DNA of 54,637 nt, filler included, from Bipalium vagum (Eukaryota), in NCBI GenBank assembly GCA_037834085.1. It is 3 parts of 3 records of this genome, joined end to end, with 100 filler letters (N's around TTAATTAATTAA, not from the genome) between each part and the next. Parts side by side here need not be neighbours in the genome. Positions count along the whole stretch, not along the records: positions 19,838 to 38,146 come from JBBMKC010033330.1; 2 more parts are not named here. One strand, written 5' to 3'. How positions within the stretch are numbered: position 1 is the first letter of the stretch; each line of letters begins with the position of its first letter. Position numbers and translations under genes: made by a program. The notes under the pieces are model-generated. The model saw only the letters and a program-made list of their open reading frames with translations, did no database searches and was not told the origin of the DNA. Positions 11,064 to 54,637 of this stretch are shown here, in pieces.

Positions 11064-12704
11064 CTGATTTTGTTTAATCACATTAATAAATTTAATCTTT
11101 ATTTATGAAAATGTTTCACTGAGATTTTTATCGATCTGATGTTAGTTCAAGAGAAATGAATAATTTATATTGATATCAGATTTTCAGTTTTTTTTATTAA
11201 AAAACTAATTTAGTAGATCAGATCCCAATGGCTTTCAGCGTTCATATGATCATTATTGAACTAGTTGTATTTTACTAAAATGTACATTGAAAAGGTAACC
11301 TTCGAGTTACATACACTTTCATCCTAAAGATTAAGAGAAATAATTTTTCTGCTGTTTTTTAAACTTTCAGTTAGAATTAATTTTATATTTTTACATCATT
11401 AGATATAAACTTGATATTCAAACTAAAGGTTTGACTAAAATAAATAATATATATTGGTACAAAAATGAAAAGGAAAAAATATTAAATATATAAATGGAAT
11501 ATATAAATAAATACATATAATAATTAAATAATTAAATAAAATAAATTTGAAAATGAAATATATTTTAAGATAAAAAAAACTCTTGTGTAGTATTAAATTA
11601 TAAATATGATAAAGAATGTTAAGGAATAGCTTTTAAAATTTGTTTATATAAAAAATTTACTATTTTAATATTATTTCTATAAAAAAGAAATGATCCAAAG
11701 AGAAAATTCATGACTAGTCAAATTAATAAAATAATATATTTATTTAAATGATAATAATGTTTTAAATGTTTTCCTAAATGTTTAAATGTTTTCCTATTCA
11801 AAATTTCTTATCAGTGTATTAATAAATCTTAATTAAATGGATATTAAATACACAATTAATATTATTTACATTATCCATTATTTCTAGTTATAAATGTATA
11901 ATCATTTGGAATATATCTTATTTCGTCCTTTTGAAAATTCTGAAATAATGCTCAATTATTTCATAATATTTAGATTTCCAGAAATAATAATATTATTTCT
12001 GGAAAAAAAACAGGGGCTGGTTTAAGTTTCTTTTTATTGTTTTAGGACAGAATTAAAACTTAGAAGTCGGCTAATTAGCTGAGGTGTTTAAAGTAGGCTT
12101 CCTTTTTTCACACTTATTTTAATCATTTTGTTGTAAAAATATAATGTATGATCATGAACTATGATTGTCATTATTATGAACATAGATTTGATTAAATAAG
12201 ATAGAACTGAAACACCCTAATATAAGATTTGAAAAGGACAATCGGAATGTGTCCTGCAGCAGCTGTGTTTGACAGACAGGTCTATAATGATAGACTCTAT
12301 TACAGTAGTGAAAAAGAATCCTGTATCATAAAGAAATATAAAAAGAAAAGGTCTGTTAAAATTTATACCAGATATAAACGGATATAAAATTTTATAAATA
12401 CTTAAAAAGATATCACAAGGAAATTAGGAAAAGTTTTTGAGAGAATTAAAACTTTGTGGAAATTGAAAGTAACAGGGTCATAATTTTAATTTTAAAATCA
12501 TCAGTTAAATAAAGCAAATAATAAAAATTTTAAAGTTAAAAAATGTTAGGTATGCTAATGAAAAAATTATAATAAATAAAATAACATTAAATGAACAAGT
12601 AACTTGAATAATTAAATTAAACTAATATACTTTGTTGATTATCAAATGAATTATAAATTTAATAATGTCATAATTTAATTGCTTAATTTAATTTCCATTG
12701 CTTA

Positions 12705-13283
12705 AATTGAGTTTTGCTTTCTGGGGCGTAGTAATGAATCCATGTCTCATCTGTGGTAACAAATCTTCGCACAAAATCAATTTTTTCTCTGCAAACGTGC
12801 CAAACACTCTTGAGAAAGGTTTATTTTTACTTGTTTTTGTTCAACTATAAACAAACGCTGCACCCATCTTGCCGTTAATCTTGGAGAATCGCTTCATGTA
12901 TTTTTTGAACGATTTCCGGAGTACAAGATGATTTTTGGGATCATCTGTCTTTGTACAACCCTGTCTAAATTCCGTAGCCTATTTATGGGCCGTGGTACAT
13001 TATAAGATACCATCGCTCAATGTTTCTACCATGTCTTGATGGATTTGGGTACTTGATTGCTTTAATCAAATTTGATCACTGCTCAGATTTCAAATTTGTT
13101 CATTTTCTAAAATAGTCAAAACTAGTTAATTTAAATTGATGTAGAAAAACAAATACTTTACCAATTGATTTGATGTTTTAAAATTTATTAATATTAATAA
13201 TGTAGTTTTACGATAAACATGATGCCTTGGTTACACACATTTTTCTTTATGCATCATTGTGCGAACATTTCAAACCACCCACG
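12705..13283 (-). mobile_element. mariner element, 5' half
   Basis: Left TIR TA-CGTGGGTGGTTTGAAATGTTCGC; transposase motifs RWVQRLF and DFVRRFVTTDETWIHYYAPESK, truncated after this. Confidence 0.85.
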
Positions 13284-18770: not shown

Positions 18771-19737
18771 ATGTGTAGTAAAGAAGGCGATCACATCGAA
18801 AATGTACATGATATAACCAGAAGTACGAAAAAAATTAGTCATGGATGCGTTACTAAAAAATGCACAGGAAATTTTGGGATTTCAAATCAAACGATATAAC
18901 GGCAGAAGCTCTACTGAAGCGGAAAGATGGTTGAAAGATATAGAGGAATGGCTCAGTATAAATGACTTATGCCTTGTCGGCGTATTTGATTTGCTATTAT
19001 TCGACGAAGCCTCAACCTTATGGAAGTTTCAAGACAGAAGCAACAACAAAAGAAGAAGCCAAGTCTTGGTTTGCTGACACATTTATGGAGAAGAAATCAA
19101 TAATCGATTTAATTTGCGAATTGTCAGAAGTTAGGCAAAATTCGGATGAACGATTTGCAAATTTTGAGATCCGTAATCGAAATTTAATGAATGACATACA
19201 GTGAGTGCCGATAGAGTCAGAACTAACAAGAAGAAGATTGAAGAAATAGTGAAAGCAAAACCGCCGGGTTGCGTGTCTCAGTTGAGATCATTTCTTGACT
19301 TGACAAACTATTACCGACGTTTTATTGCCCATTATGACGAAGTAGCAGCGCCCTTGTACGCTGCTATATCAAGTACCGATAAACAGCTTCATTGGACGGA
19401 ACAATGCCAGAATAGTTTCTAAGCACTGAAGGATAAACTTTGCCAAGCACCAAACCAATACTGGGTTTTCCAAACAGAGACCGTGTTTTTATATTTGATA
19501 CAGATGCAAGCTTTGGAGCGATTGGATCTGCTTAGAGCAGATCGTGGTAGATGTTTTATGGAAAAAGCAGCGGCACACTACAAATAGGTGGTTGTCATTA
19601 TTGACCGTTTTAGCAAACTAGTGAGTCTATGCGCGATGTCCAAACTTGATGATCAATCAGTCTTCAAGGCAATAATGAACCATTGGATTTATAGATTTGG
19701 CAAGCCGAAGAGTATTTTAACAGATCGAGGAAAGAAC
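18771..19737 (+). mobile_element. Internally deleted Ty3/Gypsy retrotransposon (gag, RT C-terminus/RNase H, integrase core), running into a gap
   Basis: gag-like YNGRSSTEAERWLKDIEEW; RT thumb QLRSFLDLTNYYRRFI..AAPL..WTEQCQNSF; RNase H FIFDTDASFGAIG; integrase IIDRFSK..WIYRFGKPKSILTDRGKN. The RT-RH-IN order is Gypsy-type. Confidence 0.9.
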
Positions 19738-19837
19738 NNNNNNNNNNNNNNNNNNNNNNNNNNNNNNNNNNNNNNNNNNNNTTAATTAATTAANNNNNNN
19801 NNNNNNNNNNNNNNNNNNNNNNNNNNNNNNNNNNNNN
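19738..19837. other. Artificial 100-bp contig join with six-frame stop linker
   Basis: N44-TTAATTAATTAA-N44, identical to 38147-38246. Confidence 0.95.
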
Positions 19838-26459: not shown

Positions 26460-26569
26460 GATTGCGTTCTACGGAATCAAATATTGATATATCGAGAATC
26501 CCTTGCCGGGTTTGTGGCGGAAAATCATCCGGATTCCACTTCGGTTCCCTAACTTGTGAAGGGTGCAAG
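26460..26569 (+). CDS. Nuclear receptor exon: first C4 zinc finger with P-box CEGCK(G), 2DBD-NR second-DBD-like
   Basis: TTGTTCAG| acceptor; reads [36 protein letters not shown]; |GT donor at the common CK/GFF intron position. Confidence 0.93.
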
Positions 26570-26812
26570 GTTGTCTATTATCAATTTATATATTTATGTA
26601 ATACCCTACCATGAAAATATTTAAATTACCATAAAATAAAATAATAATATTAATATAAAATAAAATCTAATAAAATATAAATAATTATTTTTTTTAATTT
26701 TATAAAAAATAAAAAAATAAAATTTTTAGTTTTTTAAAATTAAATTTTTTTTAATTATAATTTTTTAATAATTTTTAAAATAAATAAACTCGAACTCCTA
26801 ATTGTTTGATAA

Positions 26813-28243
26813 CACTGGCCAACAAAAAAATTTCATCAGAGATGAAATTAGATGTTCCAAGTAGAGCTGGAGAAAGTGAAAAATTATAAATGGGATCATA
26901 TTCATAGATTGTCAGAATATGGGAAAGGCAGGAAACGTGTTGTCAGAAAATAATGTTTAAATTGATTTGATTTGTTAATATGAAATTATTAATATTATGC
27001 AAGATAATTCTACCAATGAATTGTGTTTATTTGTTTTTAGATATTTCATTAATTACAACTTCACATTACTGTTTTCATTGATTTTGCCCAAGACAGTACA
27101 GAAACAATCCAGATATTTTGTTGTTTGTGGGTCATTTACTACAACATTACAGCGACATTCAATCACATCAATTCTTAGTCATGTTTATCGCATATGCTTT
27201 GGATGTCCACTGGGAACCCAATGACAAATCATGGGTATCTCATGTCATCTACTCACCTCCAGTAATTTGCGTGACTGGATAAACAAACGGAAAAAGTCAA
27301 TATCATTTACTGTATGTCGTGAACCAAGTAACCATTGCAGTGACTTATTTTAAATGTTGAACACAGTCTGTTTCTCAACATAAAATAAGCACAAATTTCT
27401 TTAACTAAATTTTACTTCTGCTATGAGGCCCGTTCTTCATGATGATTCCCTATCAGTTCCATACCATCAATAGACGGAATAAGTTGTATTGACGATGTAG
27501 AAGGAATTGTTGAAAGTGCAACAAGTGATGATCTGCAATCTACTGTAAGTGATGCTTACTATATTCCATCAGAAGCATTAGAGTCTGAATCATTTACACA
27601 AGAAGAGTTAAATGACTTAGTTCATGATATGTATTTGTCTAAGGAAAAGGGAGAACTTCTTGCTTCACAACTAAAGCAAAAAAATCTACTTGCACATAAT
27701 ATTATAATACATAATAATATAACTGGTTTTGTGAATCTTTGTCAACTCCACATGGCGCATGTTTAATAATTCGTCGCAAATGATTCTTCAGACAGTTCTG
27801 TTGCATAATGGAAATACTGAACACTACTCCTGTTGCTCACTCTGTTCAATGATGAAAGAATTATGAAAACATTTCGGTTTTGCTTGAGATAATTATACAC
27901 AATACTCATTTACGGTGATCCTACAGTAATTAGTATGTTCATGGGTATGCAAGAAGATTTCGCAAAGAACTGCTGTTTCTTATGACTCTGGAATAGTGGA
28001 GCTATGAATGAGCTTTATGAAAAAGTGGCAGGCAATGTGTGTCTTCCTTTGGTTTATCGAAAATAAATATTTCAATCATTTCTTCACATTAAGTTAGGAT
28101 TAAACAAAATTTTTAGGAAAACCATAACCAAGACAAAATTATAAAAAATTAATTAAAAAATTTTTAATCTTTTTGTTAATATTTCAATTTTTAAAGCATT
28201 TTTTATCACTCTGATTAAAAAAAGATTTTTGTTCAGAACAGTG
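26813..28243 (+). mobile_element. Internally deleted Chapaev3-like (CMC superfamily) DNA transposon in the receptor intron
   Basis: Termini CACTG..AACAAAA..ATCAGAG on both ends (right end ..GTTCAGAACAGTG); motifs REPSNHCSD, SAMRPVLHDDSL, FTQEELNDLVHDMYLSKEKGELLASQLKQKNLL, VLLHNGN, GMQEDFAKNCCFL*LWNS. Confidence 0.8.
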
Positions 28244-28689
28244 ACGAAAGGGTTTTATTTTGGTCTAATATTCCACATTTCACGTTTCTCAGATCAGACA
28301 GTTCTGATCTTTCAGATGTTTCTAAAAATCAATAAAATTAAAAATCCACGTGAATGGATTAGATTGACAGCAAATGAAGCTACATAGAAATTTATTTTTA
28401 CAATAATAATAGTATAAATTCTATGAAAATAATCGATATCACTGTTCAGGATAAATAAATCTTCCGTTTCTCGAAGAGGTCAACGTTTCTCATTAGCAAA
28501 ATGCTCTAATCGAAAACGACACTTACAAATTGTCGATATATTCCCCAAGAGTTATTTATAAAAGTATACATTAGAACGACCTTTATACATTTATCTAAGA
28601 AAAAAAACCCGAGATATTTTTACAAAAAGTTTCAAATTCGGATATACTTATTATTTTAAACATCTTTTTTTGTTTTTCATAATATTTAA

Positions 28690-28855
28690 NNNNNNNNNNN
28701 NNNNNNNNNNNNNNNNNNNNNNNNNNNNNNNNNNNNNNNNNNNNNNNNNNNNNNNNNNNNNNNNNNNNNNNNNNNNNNNNNNNNNNNNNNNNNNNNNNNN
28801 NNNNNNNNNNNNNNNNNNNNNNNNNNNNNNNNNNNNNNNNNNNNNNNNNNNNNNN
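28690..28855. other. Assembly gap
   Basis: N run. Confidence 0.99.
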
Positions 28856-29329
28856 AAAATTAAAAAATTTTTTTTAAAATAAAATGAAAAAAGAAATTTT
28901 GTTTTACATATTTACAAAATTTATCCGATTTCATTATTATTAAAGTGTAAAAATCAATAAAAAGATAAAAAAACTTTTATGAAAATATTAATGATTTATG
29001 TGATAAGTGGATCTTTGTTTAACCTATACGGCTTTTTTTGCATAAATTCGCTTAAAGATTGATTACATTTTGAAAAAACAAAATTCATAAACCATTATCT
29101 AAAAAACTGAATATTTTTAGAAACAAGAATTTTTAAAAAAGCCAATTAAAATTATTTTAAAATTTAATATTTTTTAAAAATTTTAATTTTAAAAGAAAAT
29201 TTAAAAATTTATTTTATTAATAATATTGAAATGTGACATTTTTACATTATAAGTAGGTGACATCCTTTAATAATCATTCCCAGAAAATGGTAGGTCTCAG
29301 AAAAATTCCAATTGTTTTTCGCTTTATTT

Positions 29330-29892
29330 TCAATGACAACTACCTACAATCGGATGTCCAAAATGTAGTTCAAGTTTAATGGGATGGGGTGCCATCAGCT
29401 CCAGTGGTAAATCTCCTTTGATTGTGAACAGTTTAAAGTATCAAAAGATACTTACAGAAACAAATCTTACCATGGTGGCTTTGTATCCAAGGTTCGTGTT
29501 TCAGCCAGATGGTGCATCGTGTTACACATCAAAATCAACACAAAGTTGGTTCAAGGCAAGGATGTTTCGGACTGACCACAAAAGTCTCCAGATCTGAACC
29601 CGATAAAAAAAAAGATTGTGCAGAAAGAAAATCCACTAAAGTTGGAAGATCTCGAAAGAATTGTCAAGAAAATCTGGGAAACTCTTTCTACCAGCTACCT
29701 AGTCATTTTGATTAATTCGATGCCAAGTCGTCTTTCTAAATGCCTTGAGTTAAATGGTGATCTAACTGGATAATAACTTTTGTTTATTATTTATAGATGT
29801 TATGTGTTATTAAAATAAAGTGAGCACTTTAATTTACAGCATCTTTTTAAAAATAGCTTTATTATCGGGGCAAGTAATTTTTGCTCTGTGTA
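29330..29892 (+). mobile_element. Tc1-like element, 3' half
   Basis: MGWGAISSSG, NSLKYQKIL, FQPDGASCYTSKSTQSWF, *PQKSPDLNPI, SMPSRLSKCLELNGDLTGY*. Confidence 0.8.
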
Positions 29893-30699
29893 TTAAAGTT
29901 TGAACATTTGAGACTTACAACATTTATAAATAATCTCATTCTATTTGAAAAGGACGTTGGTTTTCTGAACGATACTCTGGACCACTTTCGTGTTTATTTT
30001 CATATCTCATATGATGCGATATATGAAAAAAAATCAATAATATTATCCCCCAGAATTTTTTTTTATTTTTCAATCATAAATATGGTGGTTTTTGACTGGT
30101 GATGTATTGTTCCTGTAGTCAAAATAAGTGTATTTCATAAATAGGACTTTTGACCGAATAATTTGGATATCTTTCGAAATTGATGTGTATATATTGACAA
30201 AATATAAATAAATAAAGTAAAATTAGAATGTGAAAGTTTACAGAGAACGGCAGTGTAATGTATTTGACAGTTCAACTGAGGAGACAATCAAAAATTAAGG
30301 TTACCTCTCATGGTTTTCTAAATTGATATTTGTTTAGTTTCATTTTGACATTTTAATTGTGTTTTCATTATTGTGTTGATATTATTTTGGAAAAATATAT
30401 AAAGTTTATATTTTTTGTATAATTATGTTATAAAATATTGCCAATGTGCCAAGATAAAATTTAAAAGTCAAAAAACATTTTTTTAATTGTAAATTTTACT
30501 AAATCGTTCCAATATAATGTGGATTTGTTAATTTGAATAGGCATTTGTTTTATATACATATTCTCTAAATGTTATAAATTTCTTTTAATTTATCCAATGT
30601 ATACTCAAAGACAATTAAGCTGCAAATTTAAAATGTCTCTTGCAGTCATTCATAGGATTTTGAAAAATGAGAAAATGATTACAAGTCAAAGCAAAATGA

Positions 30700-31300
30700 A
30701 TATGAAGAAATGAAGGACTTATTTTAAAACACAAGAGATTGATTCTCATCTGTTCGAGTGGTTTATTATGAAACGCCAAAAACATATTAGTGTAACTGAT
30801 GATAATGTGACAGCTATGGGTCTTAAGTTAGCTACAATTTAGGCATTAGATCAAGGTATAATTTGGTCTTTTAAGCAGCAGTATAAAAAGATTCTAATCA
30901 GAAATTTAATTTTTGAATCGGAAAGCACAAATATTGATTATGAATCGTTTGTTAAAATGTTAAATTGATGGAGTTCATCTCAAAATGGGGTAATTAATTA
31001 ATTGGGGTAATTATTAATTCCTTCAACCATTCTATCAAAAACGCACAGGTAGATTATACATTGATAACGATTAATAAGAGCGATTATATTGACTTTCCGC
31101 GATATGATCCATTGGAATATGACTTCATTTCAAAAATTAATGCGGAAATTTTAAATGATAGTGACTCTATAAAGAAGTCAGTACAGAATTTCCCCTCTGA
31201 AAATGACGATATAACTCAATATGATGTGAATTTAAAAATTAGAAAATGTTTTTCCTGGAAAATATTCCAGATAAATTGAAAACAATATAAAAAGTCAAAG
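30700..31300 (+). mobile_element. Decayed pogo/Tigger remnant
   Basis: ALDQGIIWSFKQQYKKIL near 30843 (QPLDQGII..FK..Y motif) with an acidic tail downstream. Confidence 0.5.
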
Positions 31301-31349
31301 ATGAATTTTTGGCCGAAAGAAAATCAAAAGTCTTAGGATGTTTGATGTC

Positions 31350-32400
31350 TTAATTAGGAATAAAAATCGTCGTTTTTTTCGTTGGATAATAAAAATTGTT
31401 ATGTAACAAGTTCAATTTGGTGAATTCTAGTGTTTCTTATAGACAGGTCCGACTGTATCTGTTATATAATATTTTAGGAAAACTTTGGAAATCCGAATTT
31501 GGATTTATTAATCAAAAAATATCATACTCAAACTTCATGACAAACCACATACCGGTCGGTCATCCAGTTTTTTATGATGACCAATTCATCACTACCGTGA
31601 TAGAGAACACCCGTCAAACATTCCGAGACTTGTCTTAGAGAATGCATACCAATTCAATAGCAATCTACTATCACTAAATTTCAAATGAGTATTATCCAAA
31701 ACTCAGTGCTTGTTCGTAATATCGGCTGAACGAAGCAATCCAAGAAACTCCTTTAAAATTGCTGCTCAAAATTTTGCCAGACACTGAGAAATAATTTTTA
31801 TCGAATCATTACGGGGTTGAGAAATTGTGAACTTTTGAATCACATGAAGTGGTGCTTGACTCCTGCTTGCACAATAACGATCAGAATTAAAATAGATTTA
31901 CATGCCAAGTTTGTTTGATGGAGTTTGGTAGGTCTCATACACTTGGAAATGATACAGAAAACAAAACAGTCAATAAACATCTATGCATGAATCAATTGCG
32001 TCGAGCAAACGACATTATGAAAGAGAAAAGACAAGATAAAATCAAAGTAATTCCTCTCCATGATAGTGAGAAACCACAGAGATCGAATATCGTCTAAATC
32101 ATCATTAAAGAGCTCGATTGGGAGTTCTTCAACATATTCTGTATTCTGAAGACATTGTACCCCAAGAGATTTCTGCTTGTTGTCTAACCAAATGAGAGGC
32201 ATTACTTTTGAGAAGGAGTACCTTAAAAAGTGGTTGACCAATTTCTAAGTTAATCTAATGATCTCTAGAATAAAGGTTGCAACAAACTGTTGGAAATATG
32301 GGAAAAGGTTTTACATAATAACGGAAATTACATTATCTATTGATTTTTCCTTAATATTTGTAAAAAAATGTTTTACTATAAATCTTACCTATTTATTATT
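31350..32400 (+). mobile_element. Decayed mariner element
   Basis: GHPVFYDD (GRP-like), NQLRRAN, VIPLHDSEKPQ, IKELDWE, LKKWLTNF, WEKVLHNNGNYIIY*. Confidence 0.7.
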
Positions 32401-32663
32401 AAAGTAAATAGCTTCAACTTTTAATGAGCGAAGGTAGTGTATTTTTTATTAATTTCCAAAAAATATAATTTCGAAGATTAATAATTTATGAATATATAAA
32501 GAAAATTATTTTATAATTTTACGACTTAATAAAATATTATAAAACATTATCTTAATTTTTTTTGTGAAAAAAAAGTGGTAATTTTTTTATAAATCTGATT
32601 TTTCTTTTTTTATTAATAAAGAACTTTCACAACTTAATTTATTATTAAAATAATTATTTAAAG

Positions 32664-32808
32664 GGCTTTTTTCGGAGGGCAGAATCTGTGAAGGATAGGC
32701 TGGAGTGCATCACAGGAAAATTTAATTGCAAAATTGACACATCCCATAAATTGCTCTGTAAATCTTGTCGATATCGCCGGTGTATTGAAGTCGGAATGTC
32801 GAAGATAG
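32664..32808 (+). CDS. Nuclear receptor exon: recognition helix, second C4 zinc finger and GMS
   Basis: AAG| acceptor; GFFRRAESVKDRLECITGKFNCKIDTSHKLLCKSCRYRRCIEVGMSKI; G|GTATGA donor; joins 26460-26569 in phase 0. Confidence 0.95.
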
Positions 32809-32878: not shown

Positions 32879-33380
32879 TATTGGGTCATGTAATAAGTAT
32901 TTCGTATTTTGGGTAGTATATTTAAATCAACATAGAAAAATGTTTTTGAATGTCAATCAATGATATATTCTCCATCAAACTGTACAACGTGTAACTATCT
33001 CTGAGTTAGTGCTTTATTTCCTCTGCGATTCCTCTCATCAAAACATTTATAACTTTTCCCGAGCAGTATGTAGTTTCGCATTGTCGTGTTATAGTATCAC
33101 ACCTTTTCAATTTCTTAAAATAGACCTGATATTTTGACTCACTCTCTATTTGTTTAGAATAGAATCCAGCATTTATAATATTGTTATTTTTCAAAAGATC
33201 CCAATATAAAATACCATGGATATTCACCAAACAAAGAATAACACCTTTTTAGGCTGTGGACCAGACTATACAGTGGGGAGAGAAACTTGGTTAGGATTTA
33301 ATCATTGCCTATCTCTTTTGCTGTTGATGTAGACAATCCATTTCTCATTTCCAGTCATCAATCGATAAAGAAGTGAATTA
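32879..33380 (-). mobile_element. Internally deleted mariner, 3' part (same family as 53107-54000)
   Basis: RLMTGNEKWIVY, PKKVLFFVW, GILYWDLL..INAGFYSKQI, GEYIID*; end TATTGGGTCATG..TTTCGTATTTT..ATATTTAAATCAACA shared with about 53107-53160. Confidence 0.8.
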
Positions 33381-38146: not shown

Positions 38147-38246
38147 NNNNNNNNNNNNNNNNNNNNNNNNNNNNNNNNNNNNNNNNNNNNTTAATTAATT
38201 AANNNNNNNNNNNNNNNNNNNNNNNNNNNNNNNNNNNNNNNNNNNN
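38147..38246. other. Artificial 100-bp contig join with six-frame stop linker
   Basis: N44-TTAATTAATTAA-N44. Confidence 0.95.
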
Positions 38247-39830: not shown

Positions 39831-40851
39831 TATGGTGGGTCAAAAGGCTTTTCCCATAATGTTATCGATATCTTAGTTTAAATATTTCATATGGATAATA
39901 AATAAATCAATACATTTGAATAAATCAACTTCAAAGTTTAAATAAAGAATTTATTTATTTTCAGTTAGTAATCAATCAGTTAGTTTTCAGTGAGTTTCAG
40001 AAAAATCAACAATTCAAATGACGTCAAAACAGACGTCAATTCCAAGGTGGCAACTGAAAAGTTATGTTCTGTAGAAGGTAATTCAGTGTTTGATAGACTC
40101 ACAGAGTTCAGTTGGTTTAAAAGCTTCAACGAAGAAGACTTGTTAATATTGCCTTTACAGGTAATAGTTTCACATAAAAGTTTGAGAAGTTTAACAGCAC
40201 AACTTGGACAAGTCAAATATAATATAAATAGACTTTTAAAGAAGCTTGGGTTTTCCAGAAGAGTTCGAAAAGAAGATCTACTTGAATTAAGAAAAAGATC
40301 ATGACTAGTAATGAGAAATGGATATTCCTCCACAATTATGACAGGAGAACTCAATGGTCATCGGCTGGCCAAAAAAGAAACGATTTTGAAAAAGGATTCA
40401 GTTAATGGTACGATGAAACTATTAAGAAAATTGTCCACTTTAAGCTGGTTCATAGAAGTGATTCATACTTAATTGTACGCTGAGGTATCTACACTTTAAA
40501 CAAATTTAAACAGAAAACCCGCTCTGTTCCAACATGATAATACTCCTAAGCATCGACATCTTTTGATCACAGCTCGAATTCAGAAAATGCAATTGCCTTC
40601 ACATCCACCACTCGTTTTATGGCTGTATTTATTCGGGATTGACACTTTGAAACAGTGAAAAATATCGAAAATACTTTCAGTGAATTTATAACTCCATAAC
40701 CAAAAAGTGGTATTTTCATCAGATTGGACAATTAACAGAGAGATGGTTTAATGTCATTGAAAACAAAGGATTATATTTCAAAAATTAATCATCTTTTGTT
40801 CTTTTAAATTAATTTTGTGTTATGGGATAAGTCTTTTGATACATACTTATA
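39831..40851 (+). mobile_element. Internally deleted mariner with both TIRs
   Basis: TIRs ..TCAAAAGGCTTTTCCCATA / TATGGGATAAGTCTTTTGA..; motifs SWFKSF, SLRSLTAQLG..LKKLGF, LFQHDNTPKH, VIENKGLYF. Confidence 0.8.
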
Positions 40852-49900: not shown

Positions 49901-50570
49901 CCGTATTTTTGAGCAAAAAACCCACTGGTTATAAGAACATTTTGCATATTCCGCAGAGGATGTGCGCGCTATAATAGTTTTTAAAAAGACATTCAAGCAT
50001 GGAAAACTGTTCCTTAATAACTATGAGAGAAGACAAATAAGAAAATATTATATCATAACCAATAAAAAAAACTTTGAAAAAGTTGACAATCACTTTAATA
50101 TATTTTAGCAACAAATTTATATTTCAAATAACTTCAGTAGCTTCAAAATTTTGGAACAAAAAAATGTTGTCGGACCTCAGGTAAACATTTTGCCTAACTA
50201 GTCCGTCCTTCTTAACCTGTCTCTAATTTTATTCCAATTAAAGCATCAATTATCCATATAAAAATTTCAACATAGGTTGTTTTTTTTTGTCTTCCATATG
50301 GGTTTGAAGAATGCGCACCATTTTTCATCCAATTATCCTAGACAGCTCGTATGAATGACTTAAATGGGTGATTAATTGCGATATCTAGGGCTTGAAGTTT
50401 GAAAGTTAATCTACCAGGAATTACTTTCAAATGTGCAACAGCTACATTTAATGCTGCTTGGACTTCACTTTCTTTGTGTGTTGTAATGGAATCTACTACT
50501 AATAAAGATTTAGGTGAGAAAAATCCTCCAGATCGTACTCTGAACATTTGGATATCCACAATTAATAATC
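49901..50570 (-). mobile_element. pogo element, 3' part
   Basis: TIR TA|CCGTATTTTT; LLVVDSITTH, VIPGRLTFKLQALDIAINHPFKSFIR. Confidence 0.85.
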
Positions 50571-54159: not shown

Positions 54160-54637
54160 AATTATGCGTGGTTTCGATTTAACGCCTTTTGACAAAGGAC
54201 AGATTAGTGCATTACACAAACATGCGGAATGGACATATGAACAGATTTGACACTGTCTGCTGTGAGTAAATATTGCCAGCAAAACATCAATATTGAAACA
54301 TCCACATGAAGGAAACCAACATCCGTTCAAAGAAACTCGACGTGTAGCATCAGACTTATCTGCTATCCAAAAAGTATTCACATATTAATCACATTAACAG
54401 AACTGGAGCTATATCAGCTCCTTGTCACACTGCAAACATTGTCCGCAAATGTTTCACTGATAACATAGTAAATGTTCTTTCAAATTGGCCATCCAATTCA
54501 CCAGGCTTAAATGTTATTGAAAACTGCTGGTATATTATGAAGCAAAAGGTTGCTGCCCACCAACCAACTTCTGAACAGCAACTAATACAAATCTTGAAGC
54601 AAGTGTGGAGAACGGAGATAACGCCAAATTATTGTAA
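54160..54637 (+). mobile_element. Internally deleted Tc1-like element running off the window end
   Basis: MRGFDLTPFDKGQISAL; NWPSNSPGLNVIENCWYIMKQKV..LKQVW. Confidence 0.8.

Follow-up and report, generated by a model that had tools for sequence, protein, structure and literature searches.

Nuclear receptors that carry two DNA-binding domains (DBDs) form the 2DBD family, whose group A is defined by tandem DBDs, the first with the P-box CEACKK and the second with CEGCKG followed by FFRR; such receptors are reported from amphioxus, echinoderms and nematodes as well as from flatworms (PMC10497141). In the literature consulted, planarian nhr-1 (2DBD-NRA1, gamma) is the only member with genetic evidence on function: the reproductive organs depend on it, and so does lipid metabolism (bioRxiv 10.1101/279364). 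A gene named '2dbd', whose paralog is not specified, marks a subgroup of neoblasts (PMC10238425). Schmidtea mediterranea has four 2DBD genes, one of which, nhr-6, is named Sme2DBDa3 in the S2 File of PMC8363021 and Sme2DBD-NRA3 or NRA3b in PMC10497141; an nhr-6 homolog has been reported in Dugesia ryukyuensis, where it is not enriched in sexual worms (PMC12654950). Our search of open-access literature, for the most part at the level of listings, found no functional study of planarian nhr-6. Here we analyzed a 54.6-kb stretch of animal-type DNA with 25% GC and few long frames (the window), which contains two exons that very probably encode the second-DBD part of a flatworm two-DBD receptor, likely the ortholog of planarian nhr-6, as judged from sequence comparison.

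Both exons lie on the plus strand. Exon A (110 nt at 26460-26569; 46% GC) is preceded by a T-rich acceptor closing in CAG, opens in phase 1 with a split codon to which it contributes 2 nt, and ends in phase 0 at a GT donor directly behind the P-box lysine. It encodes the end of the predicted linker between the DBDs (15 codons), then the first zinc finger and the P-box (C-X2-C-X13-C-X2-C). Exon B (32664-32808; 145 nt, 42% GC) lies between an AG acceptor and a GTATGA donor, enters in phase 0 and leaves in phase 1, and contains the remaining recognition helix, the second zinc finger (C-X6-C-X9-C-X2-C) and the beginning of the C-terminal extension. The predicted GT-AG intron between them (26570-32663, plus strand; 6094 nt, 28% GC) interrupts the P-box helix. 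The first-pass annotation of this DNA had joined two short exons in frame at the same positions; their ends are GT-AG, their phases are compatible, and their translations agree with the peptide that it gave.

Pfam zf-C4 matched exon A over profile positions 2-24 of 70 (E 3.5e-08) and exon B over positions 25-70 (E 1.9e-10), both above the curated cut-off, and the coverage is contiguous, with neither gap nor overlap between 24 and 25. The joined domain has 8/8 zinc cysteines and zero stops, and the P-box CEGCKG followed by FFRR is read across the predicted junction. Exactly one finger-1 and one finger-2 cysteine pattern occur in the real window; when the window was block-shuffled 100 times, the finger-1 pattern arose in 1/100, the finger-2 pattern in 5/100 and both in 0/100. 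Together, exons A and B supply both halves of a single intact C4 zinc-finger DBD, likely joined by a 26569/32664 splice that we predict from sequence signals. Exon A requires an upstream exon because it opens in phase 1 and has no in-frame ATG.

Searched against 1.84 billion proteins, exon A gave 799 matches at E <= 0.001, and the ten best all combine a CEACK first finger with a CEGCKG second finger. A word-index search with exon A and five upstream codons returned a single candidate, an alpha-type fluke protein, and a word-index protein search with exon B returned zero candidates. No row named as triclad was present among the named protein-search results. From the best 150 of the 799 exon A matches and 90 further matches, we extracted 210 distinct DBDs and assigned the labels alpha, beta and gamma ourselves, by motif on the basis of the S2 File of PMC10497141, database names being unreliable. 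Those of P0154, P0162, P0165, P0031 and P0183 illustrate this, names being often wrong by sequence: alpha- and beta-type receptors appear as '2DBD gamma' and mollusc ones as ROR or HR3. The labels ROR, HR3, E75, EcR and knirps on unnamed rows were assigned by us from sequence.

The 13 extracted domains with the highest global scores against the joined domain are alpha-type second DBDs of flukes and tapeworms, with 41-44/67 identical residues. By class, the best scores were 263 for alpha (44/67), 241 for beta, 234 for other second DBDs, 226 for flatworm gamma, 204 for the remaining domains and 176 for first DBDs. Identity to the joined domain was 27-36/67 for the single-DBD rows listed and 32/67 for the best first DBD. 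The alpha receptors (2DBD-NRA2) of flukes and tapeworms, such as P0155 of Hymenolepis diminuta, P0153 of Heterobilharzia americana and Sm2DBD-alpha, share with the joined domain a 67-residue second DBD with C-X6-C, a similar linker end and, via read-through, the same intron layout, whereas the joined domain is ~35% divergent on a long branch and the linker part of exon A is one codon longer. Planarian nhr-1 is of the same family and has the same P-box, but it is a distinct paralog with a 68-residue second DBD whose D-box is C-X5-C, and flatworm gamma domains score at best 226, vs 263 for alpha. Its function, the reproductive role included, should not be transferred to this gene.

Maximum-likelihood analysis placed the joined domain within the flatworm alpha+beta second-DBD clade in all three trees: one of 81 rows (80/210 distinct domains and the query; support 100/97, with the bootstrap not converged) and two of 35 rows (34 hand-picked rows and the query), based on the DBD (96/91) or on the DBD plus linker (87/93). 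The approximately unbiased (AU) test rejected a grouping with ROR/HR3 on the DBD alone (p 0.017) and a grouping with E75/PPAR on the DBD plus linker (p 0.006). These comparisons support a reading of the joined domain as a 2DBD nuclear receptor's second DBD. The first-pass annotation had proposed this membership, which the trees sharpen to the flatworm alpha/beta subclade. It had further argued that membership would place the organism in or near Spiralia. Membership alone is insufficient for that, given the amphioxus, echinoderm and nematode members, but a flatworm placement is obtained through the subclade. Another trait that it cited, a phenylalanine where most receptors have tyrosine, proved to be real, with H-F-G in 85/86 second DBDs defined by position and F-H-F-G in 69/86. 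It is not exclusive, however: F-H-F-G also occurs in 1/14 single-DBD receptors shown, namely P0197, which we take to be knirps-like.

Among the four S. mediterranea 2DBD genes, the joined domain is closest to nhr-6 and shares its private motifs. A hand count against the second DBD of nhr-6 (PMC8363021 S2 File) gave 54/67 identical residues without gaps, ahead of the closest database domain at 44/67. The first 29 residues are identical, and all 13 substitutions, mostly conservative, come later. Exon A and exon B are each best matched by nhr-6 separately. The motif F-G-S-L-T-C appears a single time across the five supplements of PMC8363021, where DBDs of 33 flatworm species are included, and a single time across the five of PMC10497141, both times in nhr-6. 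The published nhr-6 sequence also has the C-X6-C D-box and the S-H-K motif of the joined domain; it differs in that its first DBD is known, as is its ligand-binding domain (LBD), neither of which was found in the window. The 13 substitutions indicate a species other than S. mediterranea, and the host of this putative nhr-6 ortholog is most likely a triclad or a close relative.

Could the exons belong to another receptor of the same alpha/beta clade, either the nhr-2 ortholog or a lineage-specific paralog? We consider this quite unlikely. The joined domain shows several nhr-2-like residues at sites where the available nhr-6 sequence differs; these lie behind the recognition helix, within the D-box and ahead of the final cysteine pair. 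Identity to nhr-2, however, is 48/67 with one gap by hand count, against 54/67 ungapped for nhr-6, and the first-finger serine, the alanine after FFRR and S-H-K match nhr-6 only. Residues in common with nhr-2 are those expected of ancestral states in two sister paralogs.

Several points weigh against assigning the exons to an nhr-6 ortholog with two DBDs. The nhr-6 comparison is a hand count, the trees hold no triclad sequence, the comparison set contains no true HR96, and the query branch is long (0.62). AU tests left several single-DBD groupings unrejected: p was 0.075 for ROR/HR3 when the linker was included, 0.28 and 0.25 for PXR/EcR, 0.28 for knirps-like and 0.075 for all ten single-DBD rows together. 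A grouping with flatworm gamma was likewise not rejected (p 0.12). Alignments of 66-80 columns give the AU test little power, and long outgroup branches may shift beside the query. The predicted intron contains a 166-N gap (28690-28855), which means that exons A and B are linked by scaffolding. In addition, the rest of the receptor gene was not detected. Searching the 54.6-kb window by tblastn with 150 proteins revealed no exon for a first DBD, G-box or LBD; profiles of both first-DBD halves and the C-terminal extension (36 proteins) detected no such exon there, profiles built on two sets of reference LBDs (18 and 7) gave no match below E 2 in it, and splice-anchored and motif scans of it found no first DBD, G-box or LBD exon.

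The unrejected AU groupings bear on an explanation in which the exons come from an ordinary single-DBD NR1 receptor (ROR/HR3, E75 or HR96/PXR type) with a convergent F-H-F-G. ROR/HR3 (NR1F) shares the CEGCKG P-box, the I-P-C ahead of the first finger and the intron after the P-box lysine, C-X6-C is present in PXR-type DBDs, and in searches of solved structures, where both exons match receptor DBDs, ROR-gamma is the top match for exon A. None of the solved-structure matches is labelled as a two-DBD receptor, however, so those searches gave no comparison. As for the intron site, many library fragments, including ROR/HR3-type ones, read through there into non-homologous sequence; its position is conserved, not diagnostic. 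ROR/HR3 proteins differ in having H-Y-G instead of H-F-G and a single DBD, and their identity is 31-33/67; single-DBD rows listed stay within 27-36/67, compared with 41-44 for alpha second DBDs and 54 for the published nhr-6. Two of the three trees also put the joined domain with flatworm second DBDs at starred support. We regard an origin from an ordinary single-DBD NR1 receptor as barely credible and largely refuted.

The missing first-DBD, G-box and LBD exons are accounted for by artificial joins that bound the exon block. The upstream limit of the block is an artificial-looking join at 19738-19837, consisting of 44 N, a self-complementary 12-bp linker that places a stop in every frame, and another 44 N; the downstream limit, at 38147-38246 directly behind an (AAT)n run, is an identical 100 bp. 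We read both as artificial and of undefined size, and the neighborhood across them as untrustworthy. Within the block, no more than 6.6 kb precede the exons and 5.3 kb follow them, approximately one intron length on each side; a CEACKK-type first DBD was undetected in the window, and the block stops at the join 6.6 kb upstream.

The linker end on exon A agrees with alpha linkers at a mean of 6.0/14 positions and with beta linkers at 5.75/14, compared with 1.75/14 for domains outside the first- and second-DBD classes. Reference linkers are 17-22 residues long in 78/86, and exon A carries 15 linker codons, the others being expected on the missing upstream exon. By our reading of read-through fragments, an intron interrupts the linker of alpha, beta and gamma genes 14 codons ahead of the first cysteine, one codon off that of exon A. 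Exon B ends in phase 1 at the expected start of the glycine preceding the G-box RXGRQ(P/S). From orthology and exon layout we infer a two-DBD architecture for this gene, whose remaining exons are probably in unassembled or separately assembled DNA.

Within the window, no first-DBD exon was found across the upstream 26 kb, nor a G-box or LBD exon across the downstream 22 kb, which would also fit a derived nhr-6 now lacking the first DBD, the LBD or both of them and acting as a single-DBD or knirps-like ligand-independent factor. We regard such a loss as very unlikely. The block that holds the exons extends just 6.6 kb to the upstream side and 5.3 kb to the downstream side, and the one measurable intron alone spans 6.1 kb; conservation extends to the linker end, the exon pair opens and closes in phase 1, as complete genes do, and the S. 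mediterranea nhr-6 sequence has a first DBD and an activation function 2 (AF2) motif. The apparent loss of the first DBD or LBD is best explained by a broken assembly. It is still less probable that the exons are a dead gene fragment or parts of different paralogs united by scaffolding, for which the 166-N gap between them and the failure to find the remainder of the gene in the window could be cited. There is no stop or frameshift, the eight cysteines and the splice sites are intact, the 13 differences from the nhr-6 sequence are mostly conservative, and each exon, taken separately, best matches nhr-6, in correct order, strand and phase.

Several candidates for the missing exons were dropped. 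The first-DBD exon candidate, at 12732-12818, had E 0.004 in tblastn and E 0.89 in the profile search, and its opposite strand resembles a decayed transposase of mariner type. An LBD exon candidate at 39991-40160 showed a weak match to the Mos1 helix-turn-helix (E 0.015). Two motif candidates, RIGR (33696) for the G-box and an AF2-like one (34583), are each in a short stop-bounded frame without receptor context, and motif scans for the LBD Ti signature and AF2 gave isolated matches, also without receptor context.

The D-box of the joined domain, which the first-pass annotation did not mention, has the form C-X6-C, compared with the usual C-X5-C. When second DBDs were classed by their first DBD, C-X6-C was present in 9/9 alpha, 0/9 beta and 1/68 other second DBDs. 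The available nhr-2 and nhr-6 second DBDs also have it, and so do PXR-type DBDs, so this D-box length is not unique among receptors. The joined domain combines a 67-residue second DBD with C-X6-C, the features by which we recognize the alpha lineage, and the first DBD of nhr-6, in the sequence available, has the alpha-type H-H-G-A-Y. In the S2 File of PMC10497141, the second D-boxes of alpha, nhr-2 and nhr-6 are given with five residues, one below those in the PMC8363021 file and in database proteins. The two sources also file nhr-6 differently: the 2023 table lists it under NRA3, with the beta orthologs (PMC10497141), and the 2021 file names it with alpha, as Sme2DBDa3 (PMC8363021).

Our trees grouped the joined domain with alpha at 100/85 (81 rows) and 93/86 (35 rows with linker) and with beta at 62/67 (35 rows, DBD), and AU tests of alpha versus beta rejected neither (p 0.39 and 0.52). 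The D-box indel leans toward tying nhr-6 to the alpha lineage. We favor, with moderate confidence, the interpretation that nhr-6 is a second alpha-lineage paralog, that planarians have no true beta ortholog under that name and that the 2023 nomenclature misfiles nhr-6; a second alpha paralog is likelier than the loss of the first DBD or LBD.

By analogy with described receptors, the full protein would have the order A/B-DBD1-DBD2-hinge-LBD. The CEGCKG P-box of NR1 receptors recognizes AGGTCA-type half-sites, and the second DBD, which has this P-box in common with them, would be expected to read such a half-site, with the G-box on the next exon making minor-groove contacts next to it. A second site would be read by the first DBD, which would be set apart by a short linker of 17-22 residues that constrains the spacing between the two sites. 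The extra D-box residue may alter the dimer loop of the second finger. Homodimer formation would be driven by the LBD; the alpha receptors of Schistosoma and Echinococcus are reported to form LBD homodimers and no heterodimer with RXR, and unsaturated fatty acids have been proposed through modelling as ligands (PMC10497141).

No neighboring gene was recognized in the window, and Rfam and ARAGORN gave 0 matches and 0 genes, respectively. The longest open frame of the window (7209-7910, plus strand; 234 codons, ATG at 7236) is rich in lysine and isoleucine; it has no Pfam match above cut-off, no usable ESM Atlas match and a low recognition value, and could be a chance frame in AT-rich DNA or what remains of a mobile element. 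Decayed DDE transposase fragments were detected by Pfam (Transposase_1, HTH_48, DDE_1, DDE_3 and HTH_24) at 8892-9224, 39984-40301 and 54348-54635 on the plus strand and at 33009-33248 and 50341-50568 on the minus strand. Mariner/Tc1-like pieces were recognized by eye at 12660-13120 (minus strand) and, within the receptor intron, at 29337-29594 (plus strand). Broken frames at 18817-19737 (plus strand), which enter the first join, resemble by eye the gag and reverse transcriptase/RNase H of a long terminal repeat retrotransposon; the three frames tried had no Pfam match. A short island of ~59% GC amid 25% GC DNA (1969-2229, plus strand) also had no Pfam match.

The significance of this finding is small: it adds one more species for a gene already recorded in Schmidtea and Dugesia, and the gene appears to be an ordinary new member of its family. 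How two-DBD receptors read DNA and what role nhr-6 plays are no more testable via these two exons than via the Schmidtea gene. If a loss of the first DBD or LBD were true, the gene would represent a natural reversal from two DBDs to one and a direct test of the purpose of the extra DBD. The one-residue D-box insertion, which this gene has in common with nhr-2, nhr-6 and the alpha receptors of flukes and tapeworms and which is missing from the published alignment, is of some use for the book-keeping of the family, and the subclade placement of the joined domain backs the flatworm identity of the genome.

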